Shown: one piece after another, positions 2,831-41,155 of the stretch
Numbering within the stretch: the stretch's first letter is position 1
Layout of the letters: the number at the start of each line of letters is the position of its first letter
Virus record (IMG/VR): IMGVR_UViG_3300029619_000017
Origin: a virus
Strand: one strand, 5' to 3'
DNA length: 41,155 nt
Made by a program: the position numbers and the translations under genes
Notes under the pieces: generated by a model
Seen by the model: the letters and a program-made list of their open reading frames with translations, nothing else
What the model was told of the DNA's origin: nothing
The model's database searches: none

Positions 2831-2881
2831 TCCGAAAAGGGAGTCTTTTTTAAAGGCTCCATTAAAAATTGAGGTGATTTT

Positions 2882-4063: not shown

Positions 4064-4068
4064 TTATA

Positions 4069-8505: not shown

Positions 8506-8517
8506 TCTGACTGCTCC

Positions 8518-8835
8518 TCATCTGTTAAAGATTCTTAGGATTGACGAAACAAGAGAAAATATCACAGGAATAGCAATGATCGCCGCAAAAAGCACAATGT
8601 ATATAATAGATAATGTGGTAATCGGGGACATCAATACAACAATCAGCGCCCATACCCATAGTATAATACTCAAAGGGGGAAACATTTGTATTAAAAAGAG
8701 GGAAACAATATCAAAAATCAGAGATTTATCCAGAACAACAAGCGGTGCTATGCCTATAAATAAAAGCAAGATATAATATAAAACAACGCCGAATGTACCT
8801 AAAGCTGCTTGAAATTTTTCTTTTATCGCATTCAT
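8518..8835 (-). CDS. Small polytopic membrane protein (AT-rich island)
   Basis: 105 aa, almost entirely hydrophobic (3-4 predicted spans). Hand count 22/60 G+C at 8641-8700. Confidence 0.6.
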   Translation of the reverse strand: MNAIKEKFQAALGTFGVVLYYILLLFIGIAPLVVLDKSLIFDIVSLFLIQMFPPLSIILWVWALIVVLMSPITTLSIIYIVLFAAIIAIPVIFSLVSSILRIFNR

Positions 8836-8847
8836 GCAATATTCCCC

Positions 8848-10878: not shown

Positions 10879-11475
10879 TCAAAGACCTTTTGAAAGACTG
10901 CGAATCAGGTCGGCAATGCTTTTCTGCTGATCCTCCGGGAGGGAGGAAAAAATCCTAAACAGCTCCTCATTTTCGGACAGCTCCCGTTCTTCGGGGGCTG
11001 TCTGCTCTTCTTCGGTGAAATATTCGATAGGTACGCCGAAAAGGTTTGCGATTTTTTGAATGTTAGTGTCGCTCGGAACAGCACCTTTTTTCCACCCGGT
11101 GGCACTTGCACGAGTAACACCTATTTTTTCAGCAACGGTACTCGGAGATAAATCTTTGTCTTCATTCAGGGCACATAAATCTAATAGTTTCGTATAAAAA
11201 TCAACAACTTTGAATTCTTTCTTCGGCGTTTCGTTGTCTATTTTTTTTTCTTCTTTCGGAAAGTAATCGACACTTACCCCGAAATAATCGGCCAGCTTTT
11301 GAAGGTTTATATCGGTAGGTATATATCCCCTCTTCCAACGGCTTACAGATGTCTTGGAAATACCCACATCAAGAGCGGCCTTTGACGGAGTTATCTTCTT
11401 GTCTCTGCACAGTTGCAAATAAGTGTTGTAGAAGTTAGACAAAAAATCACCTCTCAAATTGTTCAGGATTGCCAA
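10879..11475 (-). CDS. Tandem double-HTH XRE-family repressor
   Basis: Two HTH_3 units (...ITPSKAALDVGISKTSVSRWKRGYIPTDINLQKLADYFGVSVDYF and ...LSPSTVAEKIGVTRASATGWKKGAVPSDTNIQKIANLFGVPIEYF). Divergent from a consensus promoter. Confidence 0.8.
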   Translation of the reverse strand: MAILNNLRGDFLSNFYNTYLQLCRDKKITPSKAALDVGISKTSVSRWKRGYIPTDINLQKLADYFGVSVDYFPKEEKKIDNETPKKEFKVVDFYTKLLDLCALNEDKDLSPSTVAEKIGVTRASATGWKKGAVPSDTNIQKIANLFGVPIEYFTEEEQTAPEERELSENEELFRIFSSLPEDQQKSIADLIRSLSKGL

Positions 11476-20008: not shown

Positions 20009-20653
20009 ATGAAGCACCTTGGAGATATAACGAAGATAAACGGAGCTGCCGTTCCCGCTGTCGATGTCATCATTGGCGGCAGTCCGTGCCAGGATCTCTC
20101 TGTTGCGGGTAAGCAGGCAGGGCTTGCCGGTGAACGGTCCGGGCTCTTTATGGAGCAATTACGGATAATAAAAGAAATGAGGAGGGCTGACCTTGAACGA
20201 GGCAGAACAAATGAGTCTGTTCGACCGAGATATATGGTGTGGGAAAATGTGCCCGGAGCTTTCAGCTCCAACAAAGGAGCCGATTTCAGCATCGTGCTCC
20301 AAGAAACCGCAAAAGTGGCCTGCGAACAAGCCCCCGCTGTTCCTATCCCTAAAAACGGATGGCCTCCAGCCGGATGCCTTACCGATGTGGGAGGACAATG
20401 GAGCATTGCGTGGCGAGTATTTGATGCACAGTTTTGGGGTGTGCCCCAAAGACGAAAACGCATCGCACTTGTCGCAGATTTTGGAGGCCTCACCGCACCC
20501 GAAATACTATTTGAGCGCAAGGGCGTGCCGGGGTATATTAAACCGAGCGGAAAAGAGGGGCAAGCAGCTCCCGGAAATATTGAAACTTGCTTTAATACAG
20601 CAGGTCTGGCAAGACGGAAAAGCACCGGCTTTGAGAGCGCAAAGCGGCGATAA
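20009..20653 (+). CDS. C5 cytosine DNA methyltransferase fragment: motifs IV (PCQ), VI (ENV) and VIII (QxRxR) only; lacks motif I; frame ends prematurely
   Basis: GGSPCQDLSVAG (PCQ at 20084-20092), VWENVPGAFSS (ENV at 20243-20251), DAQFWGVPQRRKRIALVADFGG. It starts at MKHLGDITK, the point where homologues continue after motif II. Confidence 0.8.
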   Translation: MKHLGDITKINGAAVPAVDVIIGGSPCQDLSVAGKQAGLAGERSGLFMEQLRIIKEMRRADLERGRTNESVRPRYMVWENVPGAFSSNKGADFSIVLQETAKVACEQAPAVPIPKNGWPPAGCLTDVGGQWSIAWRVFDAQFWGVPQRRKRIALVADFGGLTAPEILFERKGVPGYIKPSGKEGQAAPGNIETCFNTAGLARRKSTGFESAKRR

Positions 20654-20890: not shown

Positions 20891-21560
20891 ATGTTTGAAA
20901 ACTACCAATTTGCAAATTACCGCCCCGGTTGCGGAACGCTTAAAGCCAGCGGCGGCGATTACGGGGGGCTCGGAAAATTTGATCGTATACCAATACTGGA
21001 ACGGCGAACAAGTAACCGACACCCTCACGGCAAGTAATGCAGGAGGAGAACAACGGATGCCAGACAAACAAAACTTTAATTGTGTAGTGGGCATAGACGG
21101 ATACAATGCTGCTTTTACCGGAGATAAATCCGCAACGCTTGGCGTAAATTGCGGGCAATCCACAGGGCGCAACGGTGTATGTGAGGAACAAAGCCAGGCA
21201 CAGTACATTGTGCGGAGGCTTACACCGCTTGAATGTGAACGCCTGCAAGGCTTTCCGGACGGTTGGACGGATATAGGCGAATGGACGGACAGCAAAGGCA
21301 AAGTACATAAAGAGAGCACCGACAGCGCACGCTACAAAGCCCTTGGAAACAGCATAGCCATACCGCCTTGGAAGTTTGTCCTGCAAAAGCTTTCGAGTTT
21401 TTGCGGCGAAAATCCCACAATGGCAAGTCTATTCGACGGTATCGGCGGTTTTCCACTGATATGGGAAAGCCTTAACGGCAAACGCTCTTGTATATGGGCA
21501 AGTGAAATTGAGGAATTTCCTATTGCCGTAACAAAATATCACTTTCCGGAGGAGGAATGA
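20891..21560 (+). CDS. C5 methyltransferase C-terminal part (TRD module, motifs IX-X) fused to an N-terminal-type segment (motifs I-II); needs a frame correction at G6 20963-20968
   Basis: ATG 20891 reads MFENYQFANYRPGCGTLKASGGDYGG, then goes out of frame. The track ORF 20895..21560 continues ...GSENLIVYQ...YIVRRLTPLECERLQGFPDGW...ALGNSIAIP...MASLFDGIGGFPLIWESL...WASEIEEFPIAVTKYHFPEEE. Confidence 0.6.
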
Positions 21561-22263: not shown

Positions 22264-22725
22264 ATGACAGATTGGAAGAAACTCAGAAATGAATATATTA
22301 ACGGTAATATAAGCTATCGGGAAATGGCCGAAAAGTATGATGTTTCGTATTCGGCCGTGAAATATCATGCCCACCAGGAGCACTGGGGAGAGAAAAAACG
22401 AAAACAGGCTCCAAAGCTTGAGAAAATGTTAGCAGAAAAGACCGCCGAAAAAATCACGGAGCAGACGGCAAACGACTATGTTAATCGTCAGAAACGAATA
22501 TTTAAGCTTTCGGATAAATTAACCGAGAAAATCGAGCTGGCAATAAGTCAGCTCGATGTTTTTTTAACCGAAGACGGCGAAATGCACCAGACAGGATATG
22601 TAGACACGCAGAAGCTCCGGCAGATCGTTTCTTCCCTTAAGGATATAAAGGAGCTGACCACAGAAGAAAACACGGCCACCGAAATAAAGGTCGACTTTGG
22701 CGGCGGAGAGAATTATGCAAAGTAA
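22264..22725 (+). CDS. terS: Terminase small subunit
   Basis: 153 aa. N-terminal HTH (...ISYREMAEKYDVSYSAVKYHA...). Overlaps the large subunit gene. Confidence 0.7.
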   Translation: MTDWKKLRNEYINGNISYREMAEKYDVSYSAVKYHAHQEHWGEKKRKQAPKLEKMLAEKTAEKITEQTANDYVNRQKRIFKLSDKLTEKIELAISQLDVFLTEDGEMHQTGYVDTQKLRQIVSSLKDIKELTTEENTATEIKVDFGGGENYAK

Positions 22726-24127
22726 TAAAAGCAATTACAATATCCTTTCGATACCGTACATAAACGAAAAGCAAAAACAGTTTTTGAAATCAGAAAAGAA
22801 ATATACCGGCTACGGCGGTGCTCGCGGCGGTGGAAAATCGTGGGCGGTAAGAACAAAGGCAAAGCTTTTGTGTCTGCGTTACGCAGGAATAAAAGTACTT
22901 ATTGTCAGAAGAAGCTATCCCGAGCTTACGGCGAATCATATTGATGTGCTTCGTCCCGAGCTTGCGGGCATAGCAAAATATAATAAGCAGGAAAAGATGT
23001 TCACATTCGCAAACGGCAGCACCATTTCATTCAGATATTGTGCCAAAGACAGCGATCTTGATAATTTTCAAGGTTCGGAATATGACTGTATCTTTCTCGA
23101 CGAGGCAACACAGCTTTCGGAACATCAGTTTGAAGTGCTTCGTGCCTGCCTTCGTGGTGTCAACAATTTCCCCAAGCGAATGTATCTGACCTGCAACCCC
23201 GGCGGACAGGGTCATGCATGGGTCAAGAGGCTTTTTATCGACAGGCGTTTTAAGGAGACCGAAAACCCCGATGATTATGTTTTTATTCAGGCTCTTGTTC
23301 AGGATAATAAACCGCTTATGAAAAACCAACCCGATTATGTGCAGCAGCTTGAAGGACTGACGGGAAAGCTGAAAAAAGCGTGGCTTTACGGCGATTGGAA
23401 TATCTTTGAGGGACAGTTCTTTGAAGATTTTGTAGACGATCCCGGCCACTATGAGGACAGGACATTCACAAATGTCATTAAGGCCTTTGAGCCGCCCGAA
23501 GGGTGGACGATATATCGGTCTTACGACTTCGGTTATTCAGACCCTTTCTCCTGCGGGTGGTGGGCTGTGGACTACGAAGGACGGCTATACCGTATCCTTG
23601 AATGCTACGGTTGCAAGCCAAATGAGCCGGACACGGGCGTTAAATGGACCCCCGATGAGCAGTTTGCGGAAATTTCCCGAATCGAGCGGGAGCACCCGTG
23701 GCTCAAGGGCAAGAAAATACACGGTGTTGCCGATCCGTCCATTTGGGACGGTTCCAAAGGCGTTTCCACGGCCGACACGGCACGAAGATACGGCATATAT
23801 TTTGAACCGGGTATCAATGCCCGTATTCCGGGGTGGATGCAGATGCATTACAGATTTGCTTTTGACGAAAACGGCTATCCGATGATGTATATCTTTGACA
23901 CTTGCAAGGATTTCATAAGGACGATACCCACCCTTATATATTCCGAGACAAAGCCCGAAGACCTTGACACCGAGCTTGAGGATCATATAGCAGATGAGAC
24001 AAGATATATGTGTATGGCTCGGCCTATCAAACCCACAAAAAGAACTGCAAAAGAGCCTGTCTTTGATGACCCGCTCGAACTACAGCCGGACAAGGATAAG
24101 TATTATCGCAAAATTGAGGTGTTTTAA
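22715..24127 (+). CDS. terL: Terminase large subunit
   Basis: GGAGAG RBS then ATG 22715. Walker A YGGARGGGKSW, Walker B-like CIFLDEAT, and a C-terminal nuclease region with acidic residues. Confidence 0.9.
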   Translation: MQSNKSNYNILSIPYINEKQKQFLKSEKKYTGYGGARGGGKSWAVRTKAKLLCLRYAGIKVLIVRRSYPELTANHIDVLRPELAGIAKYNKQEKMFTFANGSTISFRYCAKDSDLDNFQGSEYDCIFLDEATQLSEHQFEVLRACLRGVNNFPKRMYLTCNPGGQGHAWVKRLFIDRRFKETENPDDYVFIQALVQDNKPLMKNQPDYVQQLEGLTGKLKKAWLYGDWNIFEGQFFEDFVDDPGHYEDRTFTNVIKAFEPPEGWTIYRSYDFGYSDPFSCGWWAVDYEGRLYRILECYGCKPNEPDTGVKWTPDEQFAEISRIEREHPWLKGKKIHGVADPSIWDGSKGVSTADTARRYGIYFEPGINARIPGWMQMHYRFAFDENGYPMMYIFDTCKDFIRTIPTLIYSETKPEDLDTELEDHIADETRYMCMARPIKPTKRTAKEPVFDDPLELQPDKDKYYRKIEVF

Positions 24128-26067
24128 TGGCATTTTTAGATTTATTTAAGAAAAAGGGTGGACAAACGCCCGAAGAGACAGAAGTAACAAGCGCAGACGA
24201 AGCAGTCGAGGCCGAAAAAGTGGTTGACAAGATAGGCCCCGAACAGGTCAGAGCGGCACGACAGAGGCTTGAAAAGTATCGTCAAGGCAAAGCACAAATC
24301 GAAAATCGAATAATTGAAAATGAGAAATGGTGGAGACTCAGGCACAGTCACACGGGAGATGACGATCAGATGTCAAATTCTGCGTGGCTTTTTAACTGTA
24401 TTATATCAAAACATGCCGACGCTATGGACTCATATCCCGAATTTAACATACGCCCTCACGAAGAAGGAGACAAGCAGGAGGCCACCGTGCTTACCTCTAT
24501 TATGCCGACTCTCCTTGACCAAAACGATTTCGAGGACACATATTCGGCCGCATGGGACTATAAGCTTAAAAACGGCTTGACCTGCTACGGTATCTTTTGG
24601 GGCTCTGAAAAACATAATGGTCTCGGCGATGTGGCTATATCAAAAGTAGATATACTCAATCTTTTTTGGGAGCCGGGCATAACCGATTTGCAAAACAGCC
24701 GTGATATTTTTGTAGTGAATCTTGTTGACAACGACTTATTGTCTCAGCAATACCCCGAGCTCGTTGGAAACCTCTCCTCCCCTGCTATCACCGTGAAGCA
24801 ATATGCGCATGATGACAGTATTGACACTTCCGACAAAACGGCGGTGGTTGATTGGTATTATAAAACCGTCGTGGACGGCAAAACCCTATTGCACTATTGC
24901 AAATTTGCAAACGACATTGTTTTGTACGCCACCGAAAACGAGACGGAACCTATCGTCGATGAGCAAGGAAATATCATTCGGGAAGCTCCCGCCGCGGCGG
25001 GTCTTTATGCCGACGGAGATTATCCTTTTGAGCTTGACCGTCTATTTTGCGAAGAGGGAACGCTTGACGCATTCGGTTATGTGGATGTTTGCAAAAATCC
25101 GCAAAGATATATCGACCTTATGAATAAAGCGATTGCCAACAACACGGTTATGGCTGCCACTCCGAGATTTTTTATTCGAGAGGACGGACAGATAAGCGAG
25201 GAGGAGTTCAGAGACTGGACAAAGCCCTTTGTGCACACGGCCTCCGGCCTATCGGATGACGATTTAAGACAATTCACCGTTTCCCCTATCGGGGGGAATG
25301 TGCTTAACGCACTGAGTCAGCGCATAGACGAACTCAAAGAGACCTCCGGCAATCGTGATGTGAACAATGGCGGAAGCGTTTCGGGCGTGACGGCTGCTTC
25401 AGGTATCGCCGCATTACAAGAGCAGGGCGGCAAGCTTTCAAGAGATATGATAAAAGCGTCGTATCGAGTGTATAAGCGCATTATTCAAAAATGCATTGAA
25501 CGCATCAGACAATTTTATGATATTCCGAGAACATTTCGAATCGTGGGAGAAATGGGAGCGGAGGAATTCGTACAATACAGCAATGCGAATTTGGCCGCAC
25601 AAAGCTTTGAAATGGGCTTCGGGGGCGGTCAAGGCTACCGTGTGCCTGAATTTGACATCGAGGTCACAGCCGAAAAAGCCTCTCCTTATACAAAACTGGC
25701 CAACAATGAGCTTATGCTCCAGCTTTTTCAACTGGGTGTGCTCAATCCTCAAATGGCCGACCAGTCACTGGCACTGCTTGATGTTATGGACTTTTCCCAC
25801 AAAGACTCTCTCATGCAGAAGATACAGCAGAACGGCCTTATGTATCAAAAAATACAAGTCCTTCAGCAACAGCTCCTCAGCCTTGCACAGTTTACCGACG
25901 GAGAGCTTGGCACAAACTATCTCGGCACAATTGCACAGCAATTTGGCATCGAGGAACAGCCAATGCCGTCGGGTAACACGAATATAGACCTTAACGGCGT
26001 AAGCGCAGAAAATTCACAGGTAAAAAAAGCGAGGCAGAGAGCAAACGACGCTTCAAGTCCCGCATAA
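24127..26067 (+). CDS. Portal protein
   Basis: 646 aa. The start overlaps the terL stop (TAATG). Size and position are typical, but I recognised no diagnostic motif by eye. Confidence 0.7.
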   Translation: MAFLDLFKKKGGQTPEETEVTSADEAVEAEKVVDKIGPEQVRAARQRLEKYRQGKAQIENRIIENEKWWRLRHSHTGDDDQMSNSAWLFNCIISKHADAMDSYPEFNIRPHEEGDKQEATVLTSIMPTLLDQNDFEDTYSAAWDYKLKNGLTCYGIFWGSEKHNGLGDVAISKVDILNLFWEPGITDLQNSRDIFVVNLVDNDLLSQQYPELVGNLSSPAITVKQYAHDDSIDTSDKTAVVDWYYKTVVDGKTLLHYCKFANDIVLYATENETEPIVDEQGNIIREAPAAAGLYADGDYPFELDRLFCEEGTLDAFGYVDVCKNPQRYIDLMNKAIANNTVMAATPRFFIREDGQISEEEFRDWTKPFVHTASGLSDDDLRQFTVSPIGGNVLNALSQRIDELKETSGNRDVNNGGSVSGVTAASGIAALQEQGGKLSRDMIKASYRVYKRIIQKCIERIRQFYDIPRTFRIVGEMGAEEFVQYSNANLAAQSFEMGFGGGQGYRVPEFDIEVTAEKASPYTKLANNELMLQLFQLGVLNPQMADQSLALLDVMDFSHKDSLMQKIQQNGLMYQKIQVLQQQLLSLAQFTDGELGTNYLGTIAQQFGIEEQPMPSGNTNIDLNGVSAENSQVKKARQRANDASSPA

Positions 26068-27367: not shown

Positions 27368-28621
27368 ATGAAACTATTAAAAATTATCCTCAATCTGTTT
27401 GACGGTTCCACCTCGCCCGACACCACCACCTCGCCCGGCATGTCCGCCGAGATGAAAACCTACTACGATAAGCAGCTGCTTACCAATGCCGAACCCCTGC
27501 TTATTCATGACCAGTTCGCCGACAAAAAACCCATTCCTCAGGGAAGCGGCAAGACCATAGAGTTCCGCCGCTTTGCTTCCCTACCTAAGGCTCTGACCGC
27601 CCTTACCGAAGCTGTAACTCCCAAGGGACAGAACATGAGCGTTTCGGCGATTACCGCAACCGTTAAGCAGTACGGCAACTGGATTCAGTCATCCGATCTT
27701 CTTCAGATGACCACCATTGACCCGGTGCTTGACGAAAGAACCAAAATTCTCGGCAGTCAGGCGGGACGAACCCTCGACACCATTACCCGAGAAATCGCAA
27801 ACGGCGGCACCAATGTTCAGTACGCACACAAGGTTTCGGGAGGCCAAAAAGCTCCGACTTACAGCCGCGGCGATCTGACGAAGGATTGTCACCTTACCCG
27901 CGACGAAATCTTCCGCGCGGCCGCAACCCTTAAAGCCAAGAATGCACCCACCATTGACGGCAAGTATGTTGCCATCATCCACCCCTACACCGCATACGAC
28001 ATAATGTCATCGGATGACTGGATAGATGTAAACAAATACAGCAACGCAACCAAGATTTTCAACGGCGAAATCGGCTCTCTCGGCGGGGTACGTTTTGTCG
28101 AAACCACCGAAGCTAAGGTGTTCCTTCCCGGTAAAATCTTCGGCGGCGGTGAAAGCTCGGCCGTGGTTGCGGCTGAAGCTGCTTCATCGACCACCACCAT
28201 TAAGGTCAGTGGCGTATTTACCAAGGCCTCGACCACCGTAAAGGTGTATGTTAACGGTACCGCAAATACCATTACCGCCGTTTCGGCAAACAGCTCCGAA
28301 GGCACGACCACACTTACTCTCGGCACGGCTCTTGCGGCGGCGGTTCCTGCCGGATCGGTCGTTTGCGGAACCGGAGCCTCAAAAAGTGCAGGCGCAGTAT
28401 TCAGTACCCTTGTACTCGGTGCTCATGCATATGCCACCACCGAGCTTTCGGGCGGCGGATTGCAGCACATCGTTAAGCAGCTCGGTTACGGAGATGACCC
28501 CCTCAATCAGAGGAGCTCGTCCGGCTGGAAAGCAACTAAGACCGCAGCCATTCTTAATCAGTTCTACATGGTGCGCATTGAGTCAATCAATGATTACAGT
28601 GCTGTGATCAGCGAAAATTAA
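27368..28621 (+). CDS. Major capsid protein with an N-terminal Prp-type cleavage signal and an internal insertion domain
   Basis: 417 aa. MKLLKIILNLFDGSTS.... Position after the scaffold gene. A T/S/A-rich beta-like insertion lies at about 28140-28390. Confidence 0.75.
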   Translation: MKLLKIILNLFDGSTSPDTTTSPGMSAEMKTYYDKQLLTNAEPLLIHDQFADKKPIPQGSGKTIEFRRFASLPKALTALTEAVTPKGQNMSVSAITATVKQYGNWIQSSDLLQMTTIDPVLDERTKILGSQAGRTLDTITREIANGGTNVQYAHKVSGGQKAPTYSRGDLTKDCHLTRDEIFRAAATLKAKNAPTIDGKYVAIIHPYTAYDIMSSDDWIDVNKYSNATKIFNGEIGSLGGVRFVETTEAKVFLPGKIFGGGESSAVVAAEAASSTTTIKVSGVFTKASTTVKVYVNGTANTITAVSANSSEGTTTLTLGTALAAAVPAGSVVCGTGASKSAGAVFSTLVLGAHAYATTELSGGGLQHIVKQLGYGDDPLNQRSSSGWKATKTAAILNQFYMVRIESINDYSAVISEN

Positions 28622-29299: not shown

Positions 29300-29308
29300 G
29301 TGACATAT

Positions 29309-31402
29309 ATGAGCTATCCTATGCTGAATTCTCTCGGGAGAACACAGGAGTTTATACAGGAATTCAAGGGCTATAATCATAACTTACGTATAGGCTCATC
29401 GGAATTCTTTGACATGGAGAATTTGTCGTGTGATGACTATCCTATCATGACAACGAGAAAGAAAAGATACGAAATTGCTCAAACAAGAGCTTGTAGAGGA
29501 ATGGTGTCAAGAGGATTTGAGCATCCTATGTGGCTTGATGTTGACCCCTCCGATACTAAAGCCAATCCGAGCTTGTGGATATATGACAACGGCCAAAAGC
29601 AACAGACAACCGCCACAGGAGGTCTATTTATTCAAAGCACATCAAAAGCTGACAGACAAATGGTCAAGCTCGGAAGCAAGGTGTGTATATTTCCCGACAA
29701 AATATGGTTTGACAGCGAATGGGACTCGGCCGGAGAAGTCGACATAAAGAAAACATGGAACAAAATGGAGATATTTAACCCCGAGCTTCACACCGGACAG
29801 ACCACAAGCGCAGGTCATTACCGTACATTTATTGAATTTGTCCCTTGCGACGGAGACGGCAATGTTTATGTTCTTTCGTGGACACAGCATGACGAGCCGA
29901 GCAATGTAACAGAGAGCGATAACGGGAAATACTGGCTTTATACACCTGACAAAAACAATTCCGACAACAATAAAAAGTATGGAAGCTCGGCCGTGCTTTT
30001 CAAGCTTAGTTACCGAAACGAAAAAGCCTCATGGCTTCAAGTCTATGATTGGAAAACCGCTGTGAGAGACGATTTCGGAGCGTATTTATTCACCGGGCTT
30101 AAATCCGGAGACGTGGTTGACTTTTACTTCACGGACGATACAACCGCTAACGACACTCCACTCACCCGAGAAGACAACAACGATTATGCCGGAGATTTTC
30201 AAAAGGTCAATAAGACAACGTATACGGCGGCAACCGGCAAAAAAAGCTTTTACAAATATGCGTCTCGCGGCTACAAACTTACCGGAATGCTCAACGGCGA
30301 GGGCGGTATCATTCTTGACGTTCAGCTTGAGCCGTTTACATTTACGGTTACGGGTCCCGAGACAAATACCGACCAATACAACGTTAATTTTCTGAGTTTT
30401 GCAATATGCCGCAGAGTTCCCGATTTGGCATATGTGACCGAATATAACAACCGTCTTTGGGGATGTTCAAAGGACGGTCACGAAATTTATTGTACAAAGC
30501 TCGGAGACCCCGATAACTGGTATGCGTATGAAGGAATAAGCACCGACGCAGAGGCAATAACGGTCGGCACTGACGGCCTTTTCACCGGGTGTACTGCTTG
30601 GAACGGTCAAATTTTGTTTTTCAAAGAAAATTGCATACATAAGGTGTATGGAGACTACACTCCTTTCACGGCGGTTACCCTTGACGTCAAGGGCGTACAA
30701 AAAGGCAGTTATCGAGGCATTGCCATAATCGACGGCGTTTTATACTACAAGGCCATTGACGGCATATATGCCTATACGGGCAGTATACCTCAAAAAATTT
30801 CTCAAAATCTCGGGAATATGCTTTACACCGACGCCGTTTTCGGCACACTTGACAAGAAGCTTTACTGTTCCATGACAGACGAACGCGGAGACCATAAGCT
30901 TTTTGTCTATGATACGTCATACGGCATATGGACGAGAGAGCAGGATACCTATATGCGATTTTGCTGTGAATGTGACGGCGATATGTTTTATCTCGACGGA
31001 ACCGACGGCAAAATTAAGACTGTTGGAGGAACAGCCGGAAATCTTAATCTTACCGATACAAACCTTTCGAAAAACCCGTTTATACCGACAGAGGAACGGT
31101 CATTTAATTGGTTTTTTGAGTCGGGAAAGCTCGGGCTTGAAGACCCCAACAAGAAGTCCATATCCCGAATTATGATGAGACTCAAGTTTGAAAAAGGAGC
31201 GAGTCTCACGGTGTCATTGATGTATGATTCATCAGGAACATGGCAGACATACAGAACCGTATCGGCGGCAGAAAAGATGATGACCGTTAATATACCTATT
31301 GTTCCGAGACGGTGTGACCATTTGAAAATCAAGGTATCGGGCAAGGGCGGTTTTTACCTTTTCGGTCTTTCCAAAATGTACAAATCGGGGAGCAGACGAT
31401 GA
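29309..31402 (+). CDS. Putative tail tubular/nozzle protein with beta-propeller-like repeats
   Basis: About 697 aa, with AGGTG then ATG 29309. Recurrent DG.(L/I/F)YY / W.G...FF blade-like motifs in the C-terminal half. Occupies the T7 gp12-equivalent position. Confidence 0.4.
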   Translation: MSYPMLNSLGRTQEFIQEFKGYNHNLRIGSSEFFDMENLSCDDYPIMTTRKKRYEIAQTRACRGMVSRGFEHPMWLDVDPSDTKANPSLWIYDNGQKQQTTATGGLFIQSTSKADRQMVKLGSKVCIFPDKIWFDSEWDSAGEVDIKKTWNKMEIFNPELHTGQTTSAGHYRTFIEFVPCDGDGNVYVLSWTQHDEPSNVTESDNGKYWLYTPDKNNSDNNKKYGSSAVLFKLSYRNEKASWLQVYDWKTAVRDDFGAYLFTGLKSGDVVDFYFTDDTTANDTPLTREDNNDYAGDFQKVNKTTYTAATGKKSFYKYASRGYKLTGMLNGEGGIILDVQLEPFTFTVTGPETNTDQYNVNFLSFAICRRVPDLAYVTEYNNRLWGCSKDGHEIYCTKLGDPDNWYAYEGISTDAEAITVGTDGLFTGCTAWNGQILFFKENCIHKVYGDYTPFTAVTLDVKGVQKGSYRGIAIIDGVLYYKAIDGIYAYTGSIPQKISQNLGNMLYTDAVFGTLDKKLYCSMTDERGDHKLFVYDTSYGIWTREQDTYMRFCCECDGDMFYLDGTDGKIKTVGGTAGNLNLTDTNLSKNPFIPTEERSFNWFFESGKLGLEDPNKKSISRIMMRLKFEKGASLTVSLMYDSSGTWQTYRTVSAAEKMMTVNIPIVPRRCDHLKIKVSGKGGFYLFGLSKMYKSGSRR

Positions 31403-32951: not shown

Positions 32952-35900
32952 ATGAACGCATTAGACGCATATAAGAAGAAAAAAGAGCAAAGCAGCGGAA
33001 GTGCTTACACCGTACTTATGGCAGATAGAATCAAATCGGGCAAGGACACCCTTTTTGACGATATTATGTCCTTCGGCAAAAGCTCAATGGGAGATAATGC
33101 GTACAGCAACTATTACAAGGGCGGTTTTAAAACTCCCGACGATTACACGGCGGCAAGCGATTTCCTGACAAGCTCCGTTGATACGGTGAACGGATATAAG
33201 GAACGGCTTGAAAAGAACCGTGCGGCATATGAGCGGGTGTACGGTGCAGAGGCGGTCAAAAAGCAGGAAGAAAGCCTGAATCAAATGCTGTCTCTATATA
33301 ACAGTCAAGACCTTTGGGACAGCATTAACAGCCGCAGAGATGTCTTTGCACAGTACAAGGATGCCGATGAGTATAATTCCCTTAACGATATGACAGCCGG
33401 ACAGGGAAAAACACTCGACGATAAGATTTCAGCGGCACAGGAAGAGTATAACAATGCTCTTTCCCTGCTGTCTAAGGCAAAAAAAGGAAAATACATCAGT
33501 CGGGTTAAACTGCCCGATTCGGAAAATCAGAATATTGATATAGAATCGGCAAAGGATAAAGAAAGCTTTGCAAAAGCCGAGCTTGAACGGCTTAAACAGT
33601 TGAAGCTTGATTGGGAAAAGGCAAGAGCGCAGTACGATGACGAGGGCACTCCTTTTTCGGAAAAGTATAACGGATATGACTATAAGGGAGTCGGGCTTGC
33701 GATAAATGCGCTTGCTTCAAAGGAATATGCGCTGTCGGACAGCCAAAAAAGAGAGCTTGAATGGCTTAGAGACAATCAAATAAGCTATGCAAACGACGAA
33801 GAGCTGAAAAATGCCCTTGCGCTTGCAAAGGGTCAGGCCGAGAATGCAAGGGAAAAAACAAACCAAATGCATTTTGCGGCAACATATGATATCAATAATC
33901 CCGATCCTTTCACCGAAGAACAAAAAAATCTTGCGGAAGAAGAGGCTGCAAGGTACCAAGCCAAGGCGGCCACGCTTGAAAACTACTACAACGAGCGCAA
34001 GGAAAATGAACGACTTGCGGCAATCGAAAAAGAAGTTCACGACAAATATATGCCTCTTCTTGATGATGAGGAATTTGCGAAACACACAACTGTCGAAAGT
34101 GACAAAAAGTCAAGTGTGTACTTGGGGTCAGACCGCACGACAGATGTTTATAATAATATTGCAAATGTGTACAATGCGAAAATGACTGATGACGAACGAA
34201 AAGTGTTTTATGGATTGTACAATACCGATAAAGAAAAAGCAACAAAGTACCTTGATGAGCTGGAACCGATTTTGAATAAAAGGACAACTGACGCTTGGGT
34301 GAAAGTTGCTCAAGAAGGGGCAGAAGAAAACCCAGTCCTTAACAGTGTTTTGGCAATAGCGACCAACCTTGCAAGCGGTATAGGCTCCGCCGACGCTCTT
34401 CTAAGAAAAGCCACGGGAAAGGAGATCGACACAAATTCCCCAGCAAATATTATGGCACACTATTCGAGCACGGCAAGAGGCACGACCTCACAAATGCTTA
34501 TCGATTACCTCAGAAAAAATCCCGACAGCTTTTGGAATACCAAAAGTTCGCTCTTCGGACGGGATGAGGACGGCAACGCCCGGGCATTCGGCCTTTTTGC
34601 AAAGGAAACGACCGAAAGTATGCTTGACAATCTTGCGAGAATTGCAGTTTCAAAGGGAATCGGGACAGGACTCAGTGAAAAGGCTCTGGAAACGATTGAT
34701 TTTGCCCTTATGGGAAGTCAGGTAGCCACACAAACCATTATAGACGCAAAGAAAAAAGGTCTTTCGGACGGTAAGGCTCTTGCAATGGGCTTTACTTCGG
34801 GCGCAATCGAGGCAATAACCGAAGTATGGAGCGTTGAAAGAATTCTCGGAAACCCGAAAAGCTTTATTACCACTCTCGGCAAATCTCTTGTTGCCGAAGG
34901 GAGCGAGGAAATCGCTTCTAACATTCTCAACCGTGCGGTTGATGTGCTTGTAAATGCCGACCAGTCGGAAGTGATGCAGGAATATTACGGCTATATTAAC
35001 GAGGGGTTATCTCCTTCGGAGGCTTCGGCCAAGACGGTTTCGGGCATTCTCGGAGACGATCTTTCGGCGGGACTGGGCGGCGCACTTTCGGGCGTTATGA
35101 TGAGCAGAGCAAACTACGGCATTGCCAAGAGCTATGCAAAGGCCGAGAATGTCAAAAACGGAGTCAGACAAATAAAGGTCGGCCGAGAATTAAAATCGGC
35201 AGACAGCGTTATAACCTCCCTTGACGAGATTATCGCCGCAAATCCCGACAATAAGGAAGTAGTGACGGCAAGGGAAGCCATTGAAAAGGGCGAAAAGGTA
35301 TCGGCAAGGCGGCTTGGAAAGCTGCTTACGGACGAATTTTCGGCACAGTACGAAAAGGCCGTGACGGATGTGGACAGCACGGAGGTCAAGGCAAAGTTGG
35401 AGCAAAAGGGCGTAAAGAACGCCGATGCGCTTTCAAAGACCATTGCAAAGGCCTTTAACGAGGGATATGATTCGGTCAAGGGGCAGGAGCGAACCGAGCT
35501 TACTCACAACTCGGAGGCAATGGAGGTATACAAAGAATACCAAACCGAGAGAGAAAATGCGGCCGAAAACAGCGGCAGACTTTTCAGGGTGTATTCTGAT
35601 GTTGACCGTTCCGAGCTTGTTTCCTATGCGAAGGAGCAGGGTAAAAATAACAGCTTTATCCGGGAGGCCTCCGACCTTGCGGAGGGAAAAACCGACCTTG
35701 ATTCTCTTGATAATCTGCAAGAGGCGGTATTTTCCGAGATTACCGATCAGTTTTTGTCGGCCGATACGGTAGAAGAGGCACGGACGGTTTATAAGGAGCT
35801 TGCAAAAGGAGCCGGAAAGGGCATAAAATCACTGCTTGACATGGCTCTTGACAACCGCACCGAAGAAATCACGGCCGCAAACAGCTATGACACGGTGGAA

Positions 35901-38900
35901 AGCGTTTCCTTCAACGACACAAAAGACGGTGTCGAGGCGGTTGTTTCCACCGCAAAGGGAAAGAACCTCTCCCCTCTTTCGGCGAATATCGGATATGAGG
36001 CAGCCGCAGTCATAAACAATGCCGCGGACCGACCGACCGCCGTGAGAAATCTCTATGCAAACGAATATCTCGAAAGCAACCGCCACCTTGTTGCCTCGAC
36101 CTATAACGCTTCTTTTGAAAAATATTATAAGGCCGGAGAAAAGGGGCAGAGCTTTTCCGACATTAAACGCACATCGAGAGACATAAAACCGTCGAGTGCC
36201 CGCAGAATATACGAAGCAGGCAGAGCACAGGCGGGAGCCGAACGAAACAGACAGGAGCAGTATAAACAGTCGGACGAGTACAAAAACCGCTCAAAGGAGC
36301 GCACAGAGCAAAATGCGGCCGCAAAAAAGCAGGGCGGCGTTGTGCGGGAATATTCGGCAAGCAAAAAAGTGAACAGGAAGCTGAGGGGACAGCTCCGACT
36401 GCTCGATGTTTGGGCAAAGGAAAAGGGCGTTGTTATCCGTGTAGTTTCGAGCCTTGCCGAGAAATATAATCTTGAAGGAAAGATTATAAACGGGCAGTAT
36501 GAGGGCGGAAACACGATTGTCATTGCCCTTGACGGTAAAAATGCGCTGACCTCCACGGCGGGGCACGAGATGTACCATATGATTGAAAATCTTTCGCCGG
36601 AGTATGCGCAGAGCTTCAGGGAATTTGTCATAGACCACCTTAAGGCGGCGGGAAAATATGATTCGGTTTTTGCGGACTATGAGAAAAGATACGGAAAGAC
36701 CTATGCAAGGGACGAGGACTTTAAGGCCAAAATCGACGAGGAAATCGTTGCCGACCACTGCTTTGAAGCACTGACCAACAAGGAGCAGTGGGACAGCTTT
36801 GCGGCCGAAAACAAAACGCTTTCCGACAAGATAATGGAATTTATCAAGGAATTTGTGGCAATGATAAACCGTGCCTTTGACAAATATTTCGTTCACGACA
36901 ACGCCGAAATCCGAAACGAGGTTTTGGGCGAGGTTGATTATATGAACGAAATTGCCCGGCGGCTTTCGGAGGGCGTGGACGAGGCGGTGGAGAATTACCG
37001 TTTCGGTGCCGGCACGGAGAGTGAGACAAGGTTTTCGATTGGATATACTTTGGATAACAAGGCTGTTGCAATTATTGAAGATGATATTCTTGCGGGTGTT
37101 CCAAAATCCGAATGGATAAAAACCGTCAAGGATACTATTTCCGGAAAGTTCTCAAGCGGCATTCCCGTAAGCGGTCGACTTATCAAGGTAAATCGTATTA
37201 CAAAAAACGAGTTTACGAACTCAAAAGATACAAAGAACTTGAAAAACAATAAGACTGTTTACAAAGACAAGCTTAAGTCCGCAAACAATCTTGACGATAT
37301 TGTCTTGGCTTCCACCAATTATATTAACGAGGATTTAAAGCACACTCGAAAGGACAATTTCAAGGAGTTTGCTCGTGGAGATGTTTCAATCCGAATCGGA
37401 AACAATGATTATTCGGCAAAGGTTATTGTGGGTTTCACATCGGGCGGAAACATGGTCTTATATGATATTATCAATTTTACCCCTACAAAATTTGTATTAA
37501 ATGAAAAAAAGAAGGCACGCAATACCGCTATGCATCAAAATGATGCAGGAAGCGATAGAACACGCGTACCTTCTGATACCATTATACGCACAAACGATAA
37601 AAAAAGTCAAGGGAAAATTTCCTCTTTTTCGATTTCGGACGAGGAATATATGTCTGCGGCGGAAAGCGGTGACACAAGACTTGCCCAAAGAATGGTAAAC
37701 GAGGCGGCGGGTGAAGCGGGGTATAATTCTCCCCTGCTCTATCACGGCACACAAAATTTCGGCTTTACCGAATTTGACCTTAACAAAATGGGTGACGGTC
37801 GGAGCATTTTCCTCACCTCGAGCAGGGAAATAGCCTCCACCTATTCGGGCGTCGGCGGAAAAAGGAATATCGAAGCTCCCAAAAGCTCGGCAAATATGAC
37901 GATTGACGAGGTGGCAAAGGCTCTTAACGAGGTTTCGAAAAGAGACAACGGCGACCTTGAGCTTTCATCCTATCGGGTCATGACCAAAAAAGACCTTACC
38001 ACTCTTGAAAGAAACGTCGACAAGGGTATCGAGGACTTGTATGACACGGTACAGAAGAAAATAGACCTTTACGGTGAAAAGCTTGCGAGGGACTTTAACG
38101 ATAAGGATGAAAAGACCTTAAATCAGCTTGTCGACCTTTCCGACCTTTTGGAGCATTATTCTTATGACAAGCTGTCCACTCCCCTTTATATGCTGCTCCA
38201 CCACTCCGATGCTTTTACCACGGAAAAGTTTGAGCTTTCCGACCTTGAGGCCGATGTGCGGCTTATGCAGCTGCTTAAAAAGAACGACCTTTCAAATGGC
38301 GTTGTCGTTGCCGAAGATAAGGACAGATATTACATTCGTGCTCTTGACCGGGAAAAGGCGGCGAAACTGCTTGACGAGCAAAACGCACAGGGAAACTATA
38401 CCCTCTTTGCAAAGCTGGGCAATTATCTCGAAATCGACGGCAAGGGAAAGAACTGGAACAAGATATTTGCCGTGCTTGAGCCGCAGGAGAAAACCACCTT
38501 TTCGGCGAAATACAACACCGACACAAATACTCTTGTGCTCAGCGACGAAAAAGGTACCTTTGCCGAAATAAAGAGAGATACTCTTGACGAAGCCACACCC
38601 GCCATGGCAAGAGCCATAACATACAGATACGGCAAATTCCTTGCGGCGACAGTGCTTTCACAGGCGAGAGATCAGCTTAAAAACAGTGCGACGGCCGAAG
38701 TGCAGGTCAGAGCCGTGGGAGACAGAAACACAAGGGAGATTGCCGAGTTTGCCGACGAGCAGGGCTATGACAGCGTTGTTTTCCGTGACCTTATGGACAA
38801 CGGCGGACAAAACAGCAAGGTCGGCAGCTCAACCACGGCCGACATTTATATCATCTTCGACCCAAACAATGTCAAATCTGCCGACCCGATAACCTATGAC

Positions 38901-41155
38901 AACGACGGCAACATTATTCCCCTTTCCGAACGGTTTAACGAGAACGAAAAGGATATAAGGTATCAAATATCGGACAACGCCGAAAAAGATGTTCAAGCTT
39001 TACTTGAAGGCAAGAAATTTACGGAGGACATTAAACTCACCGATTCCAGTCCTCGTATTATTTTGGGTCATAAGGGCGTTAAAAATCTTCCTATGCTGAT
39101 GAAGCCAAGTCATATCTTGGAAAACATTCTTACTACGGAGGAGGCCGAAAAGAGGGGTCTTAAAATAGATCCCGAAAAGATACATTATCACGGACTCGGC
39201 AAAACTCTGTTTCTTGATGTTATTCGAAGCCTTGACGATGTCAATCAGGCTTACAGGGGAACAAAAAACGCCGCTGACTCGTCACGGCGTGAAAATTATT
39301 TCCTGCTTATTTCTACTTTGAAAGATACCGAAGGCAATGTGATAAATGTCCCTGTTTATATTAACGAGCAAGGAAGATATAACCGTGTTTCAATAGATAC
39401 AAACAAGATTGGGACGGCTTTTGGAAGAGAGCAACTTCAAAGGTATATTCAGAAAGAAATCAAAAACGGTAATTTGGTGAGAATAAAAAAGAGAAGCTCC
39501 CTCGACAGTGGGCTGACAGGAGATAAAGTCCCTGACAGGCATAACGAAGCTACTTCTCGCGGAGGCTCCGAAGTTAGTGAGAAGCCGACAACAAAGGCCG
39601 ACGACTATTACAGCATTGCCTCTGATGATATTATACTCAACTCAACCGAAAAAAGTCAAGAAAAATTTTCGAAAATTTCGAAAAAACTTCTGACCGACGA
39701 GGTTAAAGCCTCAATATCCGATGCGGGAATGAGGCTGACCGATGACAAGGAGCTTTCCTCCCTACTGAGAGAACAGGCCTATAAGGAGGAGATAGACCGA
39801 CTCAAGGGCGAGCTTGTGAAATCCAAGCGAATGGGCGGCAAGGGCAAAAACCGCCTTATGAAGCAGGACATTAACCGCATTGCAAGGGATATCATTTCCG
39901 AATATTCAAGCAAAATAGACTCTTCAACGCTGAGGGACGAGCTTACTGGGCTTTATGAGTTTATGGACAACGCCGAAATGCAAAGCTCGGCGGACTATGC
40001 CGAGCTTGTGAAGCGGTCAACCGACATTGCAAAATCGGTTATTGCAAGCTCATATGTTGACATTACCGAACAAAGCGCAGAGGACTACAAGGCGGCAATG
40101 AGACACTACCGACTGACACCGAGCCTTAAGGATGTGGCCGAGCTTGAAGGAATGTTCGGCACCTTCGGAGCGGCATATAGGCAATACGGCCGAAAGCTCA
40201 ATATGCGGGCACAGGGAACGCCGGGGGCGTTACACATCGACGAGGTGTGGGACGAGCTTTGCAACAGCGTTCCGTTTCTTGACAGAGACGCCGTAAGCAC
40301 GCAGGATATGTGGCGAAATCTTATCGAGGTCAGAGACAGTCTCGACGAGAAAAACGGCTTTAATCCCTATATCACCGACGGAGATTTGACGGCAAATGAG
40401 GCGGCGGGTGCGCTGGGTGCGGACATACTCGAACGGTTTAACGAGGTCAGAGCCGACACGACCTTTGCCGACCGTGCACAGCAGCGGGTTGATTTGCGGG
40501 AGCGGAAAATATCCGAGCTTAAAGCCGAGAACAGAAGAAAACTTGCGGAGGCAAGAACACAGAGAGAACAGCGTATCGAGAGCCTAAAGCAAAGCTTCAG
40601 AGAGCAAAACCGCAAAAATCGGGAGCGAAGAAACGGCACCGACACCAAAAACAAGATAAGGCGGGTCGTTAAAAAACTCCGTTCGCTGTATCTGCACCCC
40701 ACCAAGGAGCGGAACATCAAAAAAGAGCTTAGGCCGATGATTGAAAAAACGCTGACCGCCTCCGAGTTCCTTTTTGCAAAGCAAAAGAGCGATTATGAAA
40801 TACTTATGGGAGTATCGCTTTCGGACGTTGGGAACAATACCAAGGCCGCCGAGTCTCTTGTAAAGCTTAACGAGACCTATCTTGCCTTTTCGGAGACAAA
40901 CGCCGAGATTTCACGGATAAAGGAGCAAATTGAATCTGCCGACGGACAGAACCTTTCGGAGCTTGAGCAGAGGTCGGAAGTGCTTACAAAGCAGAGGGAC
41001 AAACAGCGGGATTTGCTCAAAAGCATTGCGGCCGAAAACGGACTTGATAAGCTTGCGGCCTCCCGCCGGGAGCAGCTGAACCGCACAACGGTGAAAAATG
41101 CACTTTCGGAGCTTTACGACGCATACAGACAGCTTAAAAAATCAAAATCCCAGTA
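32952..41155 (+). CDS. N-terminal about 2,735 codons of the giant polyvalent virion protein (ORF runs off the window end and continues at 2..2830; total 3,644 aa)
   Basis: GAGGTG RBS then ATG 32952. My manual frame-0 translation met no stop up to 41155. The ORF track has no frame-0 + ORF over these 8.2 kb, as expected for an ORF lacking a stop inside the window. HEMYH at 36564-36578. YHGT...SSREIASTY ART-like segment from 37632. Confidence 0.85.
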   Translation, partial: MNALDAYKKKKEQSSGSAYTVLMADRIKSGKDTLFDDIMSFGKSSMGDNAYSNYYKGGFKTPDDYTAASDFLTSSVDTVNGYKERLEKNRAAYERVYGAEAVKKQEESLNQMLSLYNSQDLWDSINSRRDVFAQYKDADEYNSLNDMTAGQGKTLDDKISAAQEEYNNALSLLSKAKKGKYISRVKLPDSENQNIDIESAKDKESFAKAELERLKQLKLDWEKARAQYDDEGTPFSEKYNGYDYKGVGLAINALASKEYALSDSQKRELEWLRDNQISYANDEELKNALALAKGQAENAREKTNQMHFAATYDINNPDPFTEEQKNLAEEEAARYQAKAATLENYYNERKENERLAAIEKEVHDKYMPLLDDEEFAKHTTVESDKKSSVYLGSDRTTDVYNNIANVYNAKMTDDERKVFYGLYNTDKEKATKYLDELEPILNKRTTDAWVKVAQEGAEENPVLNSVLAIATNLASGIGSADALLRKATGKEIDTNSPANIMAHYSSTARGTTSQMLIDYLRKNPDSFWNTKSSLFGRDEDGNARAFGLFAKETTESMLDNLARIAVSKGIGTGLSEKALETIDFALMGSQVATQTIIDAKKKGLSDGKALAMGFTSGAIEAITEVWSVERILGNPKSFITTLGKSLVAEGSEEIASNILNRAVDVLVNADQSEVMQEYYGYINEGLSPSEASAKTVSGILGDDLSAGLGGALSGVMMSRANYGIAKSYAKAENVKNGVRQIKVGRELKSADSVITSLDEIIAANPDNKEVVTAREAIEKGEKVSARRLGKLLTDEFSAQYEKAVTDVDSTEVKAKLEQKGVKNADALSKTIAKAFNEGYDSVKGQERTELTHNSEAMEVYKEYQTERENAAENSGRLFRVYSDVDRSELVSYAKEQGKNNSFIREASDLAEGKTDLDSLDNLQEAVFSEITDQFLSADTVEEARTVYKELAKGAGKGIKSLLDMALDNRTEEITAANSYDTVESVSFNDTKDGVEAVVSTAKGKNLSPLSANIGYEAAAVINNAADRPTAVRNLYANEYLESNRHLVASTYNASFEKYYKAGEKGQSFSDIKRTSRDIKPSSARRIYEAGRAQAGAERNRQEQYKQSDEYKNRSKERTEQNAAAKKQGGVVREYSASKKVNRKLRGQLRLLDVWAKEKGVVIRVVSSLAEKYNLEGKIINGQYEGGNTIVIALDGKNALTSTAGHEMYHMIENLSPEYAQSFREFVIDHLKAAGKYDSVFADYEKRYGKTYARDEDFKAKIDEEIVADHCFEALTNKEQWDSFAAENKTLSDKIMEFIKEFVAMINRAFDKYFVHDNAEIRNEVLGEVDYMNEIARRLSEGVDEAVENYRFGAGTESETRFSIGYTLDNKAVAIIEDDILAGVPKSEWIKTVKDTISGKFSSGIPVSGRLIKVNRITKNEFTNSKDTKNLKNNKTVYKDKLKSANNLDDIVLASTNYINEDLKHTRKDNFKEFARGDVSIRIGNNDYSAKVIVGFTSGGNMVLYDIINFTPTKFVLNEKKKARNTAMHQNDAGSDRTRVPSDTIIRTNDKKSQGKISSFSISDEEYMSAAESGDTRLAQRMVNEAAGEAGYNSPLLYHGTQNFGFTEFDLNKMGDGRSIFLTSSREIASTYSGVGGKRNIEAPKSSANMTIDEVAKALNEVSKRDNGDLELSSYRVMTKKDLTTLERNVDKGIEDLYDTVQKKIDLYGEKLARDFNDKDEKTLNQLVDLSDLLEHYSYDKLSTPLYMLLHHSDAFTTEKFELSDLEADVRLMQLLKKNDLSNGVVVAEDKDRYYIRALDREKAAKLLDEQNAQGNYTLFAKLGNYLEIDGKGKNWNKIFAVLEPQEKTTFSAKYNTDTNTLVLSDEKGTFAEIKRDTLDEATPAMARAITYRYGKFLAATVLSQARDQLKNSATAEVQVRAVGDRNTREIAEFADEQGYDSVVFRDLMDNGGQNSKVGSSTTADIYIIFDPNNVKSADPITYDNDGNIIPLSERFNENEKDIRYQISDNAEKDVQALLEGKKFTEDIKLTDSSPRIILGHKGVKNLPMLMKPSHILENILTTEEAEKRGLKIDPEKIHYHGLGKTLFLDVIRSLDDVNQAYRGTKNAADSSRRENYFLLISTLKDTEGNVINVPVYINEQGRYNRVSIDTNKIGTAFGREQLQRYIQKEIKNGNLVRIKKRSSLDSGLTGDKVPDRHNEATSRGGSEVSEKPTTKADDYYSIASDDIILNSTEKSQEKFSKISKKLLTDEVKASISDAGMRLTDDKELSSLLREQAYKEEIDRLKGELVKSKRMGGKGKNRLMKQDINRIARDIISEYSSKIDSSTLRDELTGLYEFMDNAEMQSSADYAELVKRSTDIAKSVIASSYVDITEQSAEDYKAAMRHYRLTPSLKDVAELEGMFGTFGAAYRQYGRKLNMRAQGTPGALHIDEVWDELCNSVPFLDRDAVSTQDMWRNLIEVRDSLDEKNGFNPYITDGDLTANEAAGALGADILERFNEVRADTTFADRAQQRVDLRERKISELKAENRRKLAEARTQREQRIESLKQSFREQNRKNRERRNGTDTKNKIRRVVKKLRSLYLHPTKERNIKKELRPMIEKTLTASEFLFAKQKSDYEILMGVSLSDVGNNTKAAESLVKLNETYLAFSETNAEISRIKEQIESADGQNLSELEQRSEVLTKQRDKQRDLLKSIAAENGLDKLAASRREQLNRTTVKNALSELYDAYRQLKKSKSQ
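41057..41155. repeat. Terminal direct repeat, copy 2 (identical to 1-99)
   Basis: Read by eye: 99/99 identical bases at both window ends. Confidence 0.97.

Follow-up and report, generated by a model that had tools for sequence, protein, structure and literature searches.

The 41,155-nucleotide (nt) viral sequence IMGVR_UViG_3300029619_000017 from IMG/VR, hereafter the window, carries a giant open reading frame (ORF) of polyvalent-protein type, and the center of this ORF encodes a 447-amino acid (aa) segment that very probably represents a genuine member of the ADP-ribosyltransferase (ART) family ART-PolyVal, expanded by two nested inserts. The original prediction, made from the DNA letters, had located this module at 37632-38972 on the plus strand; translation of these positions yielded a peptide identical to the one quoted there, inside one open frame, with the motifs DEEY..A..GD..AQRMVNEAAGEAGY, YHGT, SIFLTS..TYSG, DSVVFRD..DNGG, ADIYIIF and VKSADPITYDNDGNIIPLSERFN..DIRYQIS. 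No stop codon was found between 32943 and the window end, with the first ATG at 32952. Since the window starts and ends with the same 99 nt (1-99 and 41057-41155, a terminal direct repeat) and the frame runs across this junction to a stop at 2830, the window represents a circular assembly of 41,056 bp. The joined giant protein has 3,644 aa, accounts for approximately 27% of the genome, and contains the ART module as its residues 1561-2007. The features of the module, listed here together with the ORF that encodes it, were assigned from homologue alignments and from the secondary structure predicted by AlphaFold2 (AF2); residue numbers are those of the 447-aa segment unless stated otherwise.

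32952..41155, then in frame at window 100-2830, plus strand: giant polyvalent-type ORF, start ATG at 32952; the joined ORF has a single terminal stop.
37638..37715, plus strand: N-terminal helical hairpin, aa 3-28, DEEYMSAAESGDTRLAQRMVNEAAGEAG; AF2 helices 3-11 and 15-28; outside the Pfam model.
37731..37856, plus strand: ART core piece 1, aa 34-75; Pfam profile positions 9-46, 27.6 bits; 24.2 bits with the canonical-only profile described below.
37857..38387, plus strand: insert 1, aa 76-252, about 177 aa; absent from canonical members; predicted helical lobe with a small sheet.
38388..38477, plus strand: ART core piece 2, aa 253-282, strands 3 and 4, QGNYTLFAKLGNYLEIDGKGKNWNKIFAVL; conserved 30-aa block GNYTLFAKLGNYLEIDGKGKNWN.
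38478..38726, plus strand: insert 2, aa 283-365, about 83 aa; alpha/beta in the AF2 model.
38727..38888, plus strand: ART core piece 3, aa 366-419; Pfam profile positions 102-134; 33.9 bits with the canonical-only profile.
38889..38972, plus strand: C-terminal tail or linker, aa 420-447, PITYDNDGNIIPLSERFNENEKDIRYQIS; pattern PITYDxxGNxIPLSERF...DIRY.

Core piece 1 is predicted to comprise strand 1 (LLYHG, 36-40, with His38), strand 2 (IFLT, 59-62, with Phe60) and a helix (65-72) ending in TYSG (Tyr71), and could be aligned to PARP12 through FHGT / GSYFA / HHY. Core piece 2 contributes the strands GNYTLFA / YLEID / IFAVL (254-282), and its residues G254, N255, Y256, L266 and W275 are at least 97% conserved among the 32 subfamily members over which conservation was counted; this block aligns with "v..YLK..NP..i" of insert-less members (canonical-only profile positions 35-81, 5.8 bits, i-E 1.2e-3). 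Core piece 3 begins with the helix TREIAEFADE (367-376) and the strand SVVFRDLM (381-388), which leads into the DNGG loop (Asp389), and ends with the strands ADIYIIF (402-408, with Asp404 and Ile405) and VKS (414-416). Conservation extends to both flanks, as V22, A25, A26 and G30 near the N-terminus (at least 90%) belong to or follow a helix shared with insert-less homologues, and T421, Y422, D423, G426, I429, P430, L431, S432, R434, F435, D441 and R443 of the tail (at least 94%) form a pattern that also follows canonical ART-PolyVal copies, with model confidence dropping toward the end of the tail. While the original prediction had described halves about 330 aa apart around one insertion of roughly 250 aa, the measured gap is 306 aa (residues 74-379), and the interruption, which is real, consists of two inserts (about 177 and 83 aa) flanking a conserved core block.

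Membership in ART-PolyVal was supported by several comparisons. The segment matched the Pfam model PF18760 in two stretches with 40.3 bits (cut-off 31.2, E 6.8e-10), above the gathering score; the N-terminal and C-terminal pieces alone reached 27.6 and 16.5 bits, respectively, and, when artificially joined with the middle removed, scored 40.3 bits again. The middle, or either insert alone, gave nothing significant against Pfam. To avoid circularity, a canonical-only profile was built from 10 insert-less family members, and this profile matched the 3,644-aa protein in three collinear pieces (1596-1657, 1800-1846 and 1905-1980 of the giant protein) and nowhere else in it; no second ART copy was found in the giant protein. 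The same pieces are contiguous in insert-less homologues. Searched against solved structures, the family profile found PARP12 (E 0.002), PARP4, PARP10 and the diphtheria-like Chelona toxin, in alignments that paired the His and both Tyr residues (that of strand 2 and that of the helix), while in a large protein database it yielded 6 matches, two of which were PF00644 (PARP); phmmer with the segment itself against the PDB sequences gave only chance-level chalcone-synthase matches. ART-PolyVal has been defined by a His in strand 1, a Tyr in strand 2 and an Asp in strand 5, and was grouped with Tox-ART-HYD2 and the protein-modifying ARTs (Iyer et al. 2017, PMC5512222); in the same work, no other modifying domain of polyvalent proteins was as common as ART. 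By analogy with T4 Alt, such proteins are predicted to enter the capsid and to be injected (PMC5512222; PMC9503650), which makes it reasonable to expect, as the original prediction did, that an injected ART could modify host components. No experimental study of any ART-PolyVal member was found in the literature.

The predicted fold is in line with this assignment. Modelled by AF2 on a 42-sequence alignment, the 447 aa gave a mean predicted local distance difference test score (pLDDT) of 93.3 and a predicted template modelling score (pTM) of 0.85, which argues for the whole module being one body rather than a set of loosely tethered domains. The outcome that the original prediction had named as its refutation, independent halves with no ART-fold match, was not obtained. 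A Foldseek search of this model against the predicted viral structures of BFVD found a protein of the same architecture (A0A8S5TQX9, E 2.8e-35, TMq 0.68) and several proteins annotated as ART-PolyVal-like (E 1e-12 to 1e-5). When both inserts were removed in silico, the model of the remaining 140-aa core kept its secondary structure elements in the order seen in the full module (pTM 0.72), and 48 of the 50 PDB matches listed for it were PARP-family catalytic domains (PARP1, PARP2, PARP3, PARP4 and tankyrases), the other two being the ART-like toxin MbcT and the cyanophage A4 ejection protein gp27. PARP2 was the best match (prob 0.99), and TMq ranged from 0.42 to 0.57 among the listed PDB matches. 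Taken as predictions, these models provide moderate support for a split beta-sheet ART fold resembling that of solved ARTs.

The two inserts, which enlarge the ART domain to three times its usual size, differ in how strongly they are conserved. In the AF2 model, insert 1 contains helices 91-105, 119-153, 157-174, 178-191, 199-216 and 240-251 and strands 113-117, 224-228 and 235-238, with pLDDT mostly above 90. Searched alone with phmmer against 1.84 billion representative proteins (E <=1e-3), it found only 36 matches, one of which (P0006) was already among the matches of the first search. In the 35 new matches, YHGT lies about 50 aa upstream in 31 and KSA(D/T) downstream in 31 (mostly about 150 aa away), with both present in 29; the matches that do not have both flanks are truncated proteins or the weakest ones. 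Most carriers of insert 1 are 900-3,900 aa long, and the long ones are collinear with the giant protein of the window over most of their own length. As far as HMMER can detect, insert 1 is not an independently mobile domain. Its length is 170-186 aa in 30 of the 32 aligned members, and the residues conserved in at least 90% of them (L98, N99, Y114, L166, Y186, F195, Y233, A243 and L247) are mostly hydrophobic or aromatic. Insert 2, predicted to form a beta-meander (289-295, 300-305 and 308-314), a helical hairpin (318-351) and two strands, is 60-87 aa long in 29 of 32 members and 16-28 aa in two, and is short or absent in the homologues P0010, P0007 and P0008. It is more variable in sequence than insert 1: no column reaches 90% conservation, and the version found here is common to only 8 of the 83 collected proteins. 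Among the domains collected, the spacing from the His to KSAD ranges from 110 to 378 aa and is largest in the window and in P0001. Because the conserved residues of insert 1 are mostly hydrophobic or aromatic and neither insert carries a conserved polar motif, the inserts look like structural or recognition lobes rather than a second enzyme. In diphtheria-type toxins, substrate contacts are made by the loop that immediately follows the second pocket Tyr, and insert 1 occupies this place. An intein or mobile insert was also considered and rejected, as the sequence at neither insert boundary shows the initial Cys/Ser or the final His-Asn with Cys/Ser/Thr of an intein junction and insert 1 is strictly nested. 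The ART-PolyVal domain family and the concept of polyvalent proteins were already known; what is new is a well-defined nested-insert subfamily with a Tyr-to-Phe change and a shifted acid.

Conservation at the candidate catalytic positions was read from the alignment of the 32 subfamily members. His38, Asp55, Phe60, Tyr71, Trp275, Asp389-x-Gly-Gly and Asp418 are invariant, and Arg368 is present in 31 of 32. His38, on the predicted strand 36-40, is also constant in canonical members and aligns with the His of PARP12 FHGT, while Tyr71 of TYSG takes the place of the second pocket Tyr. The last catalytic strand reads "nEYvvF" in canonical members, "DDEFVVY" in PARP4 and "ADIYIIF" in the window, and the PARP4 alignment (GYDSV...DDEFVVYKTNQVK) places Ile405 where PARPs have their catalytic Glu. 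In mono-ADP-ribosylating PARPs (H-Y-I), this position is occupied by a hydrophobic residue. The Ile or Val found here therefore favors mono-transfer or a substrate-assisted mechanism, as in the H-Y-I PARPs, which on the alignment appears more likely than chain elongation. Candidates for the catalytic acid are Asp404 and the invariant Asp389 of the DNGG loop; Asp380 of the GYD motif is Asp in 25 of 32 members.

The surroundings of the module in the giant protein provide the setting expected of a polyvalent protein, i.e., a phage giant protein encoded beside head genes, with an HExxH motif, an LPD3-like and a MuF-C-like segment around the ART module:

36564..36578, plus strand: HEMYH (HExxH) motif, giant protein aa 1205-1209, read from the sequence; candidate zincin metallopeptidase site.
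37179..37451, plus strand: LPD3-like segment just upstream of the ART module; Pfam PF18798, 25.5 bits, E 1.6e-5.
39276..39485, plus strand: MuF-C-like segment just downstream of the ART module; Pfam PF18819 (MuF_C), 25.2 bits, E 1.9e-5.

Precomputed annotations on homologues back both flanking segments (PF18798 on P0009 and P0020; PF18819 on P0001, P0012, P0035 and P0037). Together, the family match, the three collinear pieces, the PARP-like core model and this context bear out the original assignment to the polyvalent-protein type of ART. One PHROG of unknown function, phrog_22978, matches the giant protein in its N-terminal third (window 32952-36560) and again in its C-terminal third (39760-41155 and 100-2830), there including the ORF part at window 35-2830; the best listed stretches cover profile positions 66-1174 and 2420-3154 and leave the central LPD3-ART-MuF-C cassette uncovered, which suggests a conserved scaffold with a swappable effector center.

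A short motif, [RKS][FY][SQ][IK][SG], occurs at approximately 37029, 37623, 38958 and 39663 (giant protein aa 1360, 1558, 2003 and 2238), and its copies ETRFSIG, ISSFSIS, DIRYQIS and QEKFSKI mark each boundary among the HExxH region and the LPD3-like, ART and MuF-C-like segments. The number of these boundary motifs is by itself statistically not significant. "DIR[YF][SQ]" also closes the ART modules of many homologues, and the boundary motifs could be processing sites for an HExxH peptidase acting in cis.

The genome is that of a temperate, gut-like phage, with an integrase (7444-8505, minus strand), a repressor (10879-11475, minus strand), a replication module, methyltransferases and the following head genes:

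22697-24127: large terminase.
24127-26067: portal.
27368-28621: major head protein.
29300-31402: phrog_511 "internal virion protein", in the head module upstream of the giant gene.

The phrog_511 gene is followed by two small ORFs, the giant gene, an ORF of 393 aa and an endolysin gene (4021-4998). None of the recognizable genes of the genome resembled a tape-measure gene. By tblastn at 1e-5, the 447-aa segment had no match among 50,697 GenBank phage records. The major head protein matched only human-fecal contigs with 41-61% identity and, more distantly, the Bacillus phage Page group. The nearest head proteins are from human fecal viromes, and a related protein is from an Oscillospiraceae metagenome-assembled genome. 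Given the lack of a recognizable tape-measure gene and the distant relationship of the head protein to that of the Page group of Bacillus podophages, it is plausible that the giant protein is one of the internal core or ejection proteins.

Two further observations concern other parts of the genome. A low-GC stretch (8001-10185; 0.358 vs approximately 0.45 elsewhere) adjoins the integrase and contains a 445-aa ORF (8848-10185, minus strand) and a 105-aa ORF (8518-8835, minus strand), both without Pfam match and the former also without PHROG match; this stretch looks like an accessory gene carried as prophage cargo. In the early region, two adjacent DNA methyltransferase-like ORFs (20009-20653 and 20895-21560) probably act against restriction. 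A tRNA scan of the genome found none.

Taking the module and its context together, we consider it fairly probable that the giant protein delivers a virion-packaged, co-injected mono-ADP-ribosyltransferase with insert lobes for target recognition or regulation; for the narrower statement that the module is an active, injected transferase, we put the chances slightly better than even. The giant protein would be made late in infection and packaged in the capsid with other internal proteins, and would leave with the DNA at the next infection. The ART module, using host NAD+, would then mono-ADP-ribosylate a host macromolecule. Its core would be assembled from three collinear pieces, one bringing strands 1-2 (His38 and Tyr71), one strands 3-4, and one a helix with strands 5-6 (Asp389 and Asp404), and the two subfamily-conserved nested lobes are predicted to pack with this core into one body. 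The inserts, in which no conserved polar motif was found, may serve as lobes for target recognition, for gating access, or for both, beside the active-site cleft. A bolder version, which we regard as improbable, would see the lobes as a built-in regulatory and targeting device that keeps the NAD+ cleft closed, or the enzyme inert, in the producer cell and the capsid and that, after ejection or cleavage at the recurrent R/S-F/Y-S/Q junctions, clamps one particular target in the host; phages would thereby have a counterpart to the autoinhibition of PARPs by their helical domain that evolved by insertion inside the catalytic domain, with the acid having migrated from strand 5 to the DNGG loop.

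Several results weigh against an active ART module of polyvalent type. With regard to family and context, a scan of the 2,736-aa product lowered the ART match to 20.8 bits, below the cut-off, which can be attributed to the splitting of the domain by its inserts. The LPD3 and MuF_C matches also lie below their cut-offs (27 and 27.6, respectively), and the 280 aa around HExxH had no Pfam or PDB sequence match, leaving the motif alone. With regard to the fold, Foldseek of the full model against the PDB found no ART but low-probability helical matches (best E 0.27), a search that was judged to say little, since 260 aa of inserts interrupt the core. The matches of the insert-deleted core to ART folds all have E-values of 5.9e-3 or worse, the core model comes from an artificial sequence and is only moderately confident (pLDDT 74), and contact among the core pieces is predicted from pTM and from their conserved collinearity. 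With regard to the pocket, the Tyr of canonical strand 2, G(I/F)Y(F/L), is replaced by Phe60 (SIFLTS) in all 32 members, only Ile or Val occurs at position 405, which corresponds to the PARP catalytic Glu, Asp404 is Asp in 28 of 32 but Asn in 4, including the closest homologue P0001, and there are two choices for the catalytic acid.

These pocket changes, and a domain swollen by two lobes with hydrophobic conservation only, could instead indicate an ART-derived pseudoenzyme that has kept the fold but is no longer catalytic and forms a structural or spacer part of the internal core or of the ejection apparatus, particularly as the podophage ejection protein gp27 of cyanophage A4 (9k3a_B), for which no enzymatic role has been described, weakly resembles the ART core. 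Loss of catalysis nevertheless seems rather unlikely, given that His38, Tyr71, Asp389-x-Gly-Gly, Trp275 and Arg368 show no or almost no variation among representative clusters with no more than 50% identity to one another, as is typical of a maintained pocket. Moreover, Phe is able to stand in for Tyr in nicotinamide stacking, and it is well established that PARPs with an H-Y-I/L triad are active mono-transferases.

Alternatively, the module could be active on something other than protein, either as a nucleic-acid ADP-ribosyltransferase (DarT, pierisin or CmdT-like) or as an NAD+ glycohydrolase or phosphorylase with an effect on the NAD+ pools of the host or on defense signals derived from NAD. 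Nothing in the sequence fixes the acceptor, ARTs are able to modify proteins, nucleic acids and nucleotides (PMC5512222), and the top TM-score among the listed PDB matches of the core (TMq 0.57) belongs to the NAD+ phosphorylase MbcT, whose fold is ART-like. The closest sequence and fold matches are, however, protein-modifying PARPs, the family has been placed with protein-modifying ARTs by Iyer et al. (PMC5512222), and NAD+ depletion would presumably hurt the replication of the phage itself; we therefore consider such activities unlikely. Finally, the idea that the halves are unrelated neighboring domains or chance resemblances around a separate middle domain or a mobile element, for example an intein, which could draw on the sub-threshold scores of each half and on the missing PDB ART match of the full model, is effectively refuted by the combined score above the cut-off, the collinearity of the three pieces on a profile built without any subfamily member, their contiguity in insert-less homologues, the restriction of insert 1 to its nesting inside the ART, the pTM of the whole module, and the absence of intein junction residues at the insert boundaries.

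Among the host-modifying enzymes that phages carry in their capsids, polyvalent-protein ARTs are predicted to be the most common. The subfamily offers a well-delimited and confidently modelled module (pLDDT 93) with candidate catalytic residues and two accessory lobes, which probably determine what gets modified. If the lobes set the choice of target or gate activity, they would offer a way to identify what an injected ART modifies in the host. In addition, because a split domain falls under the Pfam cut-off in the full-length protein, inserted ARTs may be missed in the routine annotation of gut-phage genomes.

Among known systems, canonical ART-PolyVal domains are closest to the module in the window, where YHGT, the ..Y helix, "YLK..NP", GYD(G/S) and "..Y..F....KSAD" all occur in the same order; the conserved pre-helix and the IPLSERF..DIRY tail are also common to the insert-less members and the window module. 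Differences include the distance from the His to KSAD (378 aa vs 110-160 aa in canonical members), which is explained by the two nested lobes, the Phe in place of the strand-2 Tyr, an acid shifted by one residue ("D(I/V)YxxF" vs canonical "nEYvvF"), and the invariant DNGG loop, which is specific to the subfamily of the window. The PARPs (PARP12, PARP4, PARP10, PARP2 and PARP1) provided the best solved-structure matches both by profile (PARP12) and by fold (PARP2); the H-Y-Y pocket residues align, and the hydrophobic residue at the position of the catalytic Glu is shared with the mono-ART PARPs, but the sequences are only 14-17% identical and the E-values from Foldseek are poor. PARP1-3 carry an accessory helical domain beside the ART. 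This domain is N-terminal whereas the lobes in the window are nested, and the Foldseek search of the full model against the PDB found no match between the inserts and the PARP helical domain.

T4 Alt, an ART that is carried in the capsid, delivered with the DNA and modifies the host RNA polymerase and other proteins (PMC5512222), provides the functional model for a packaged, injected ART, which the window module may resemble by context. Alt belongs to the R-S-E Alt/VIP2 clade rather than to H-Y-D/E and is a single-domain protein, whereas the ART of the window is embedded in a polyvalent giant; no sequence relationship was detected between the two. The giant ORF also recalls the internal core and ejection proteins of podophages (T7 gp14-16; cyanophage A4 gp26-29, PMC12002296) in that it follows the phrog_511 "internal virion protein" gene in the head module, even though no significant sequence similarity to these proteins was found. 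The A4 structure paper describes gp27 as a pre-ejectosome protein and describes no ART domain in it (PMC12002296). The match of gp27 (PDB 9k3a chain B) to the ART core is weak both by Foldseek (E 0.041, prob 0.85) and by profile (E 1.6, residues 1423-1458), but, if real, it would provide direct structural evidence of ART-like modules riding in ejection proteins.

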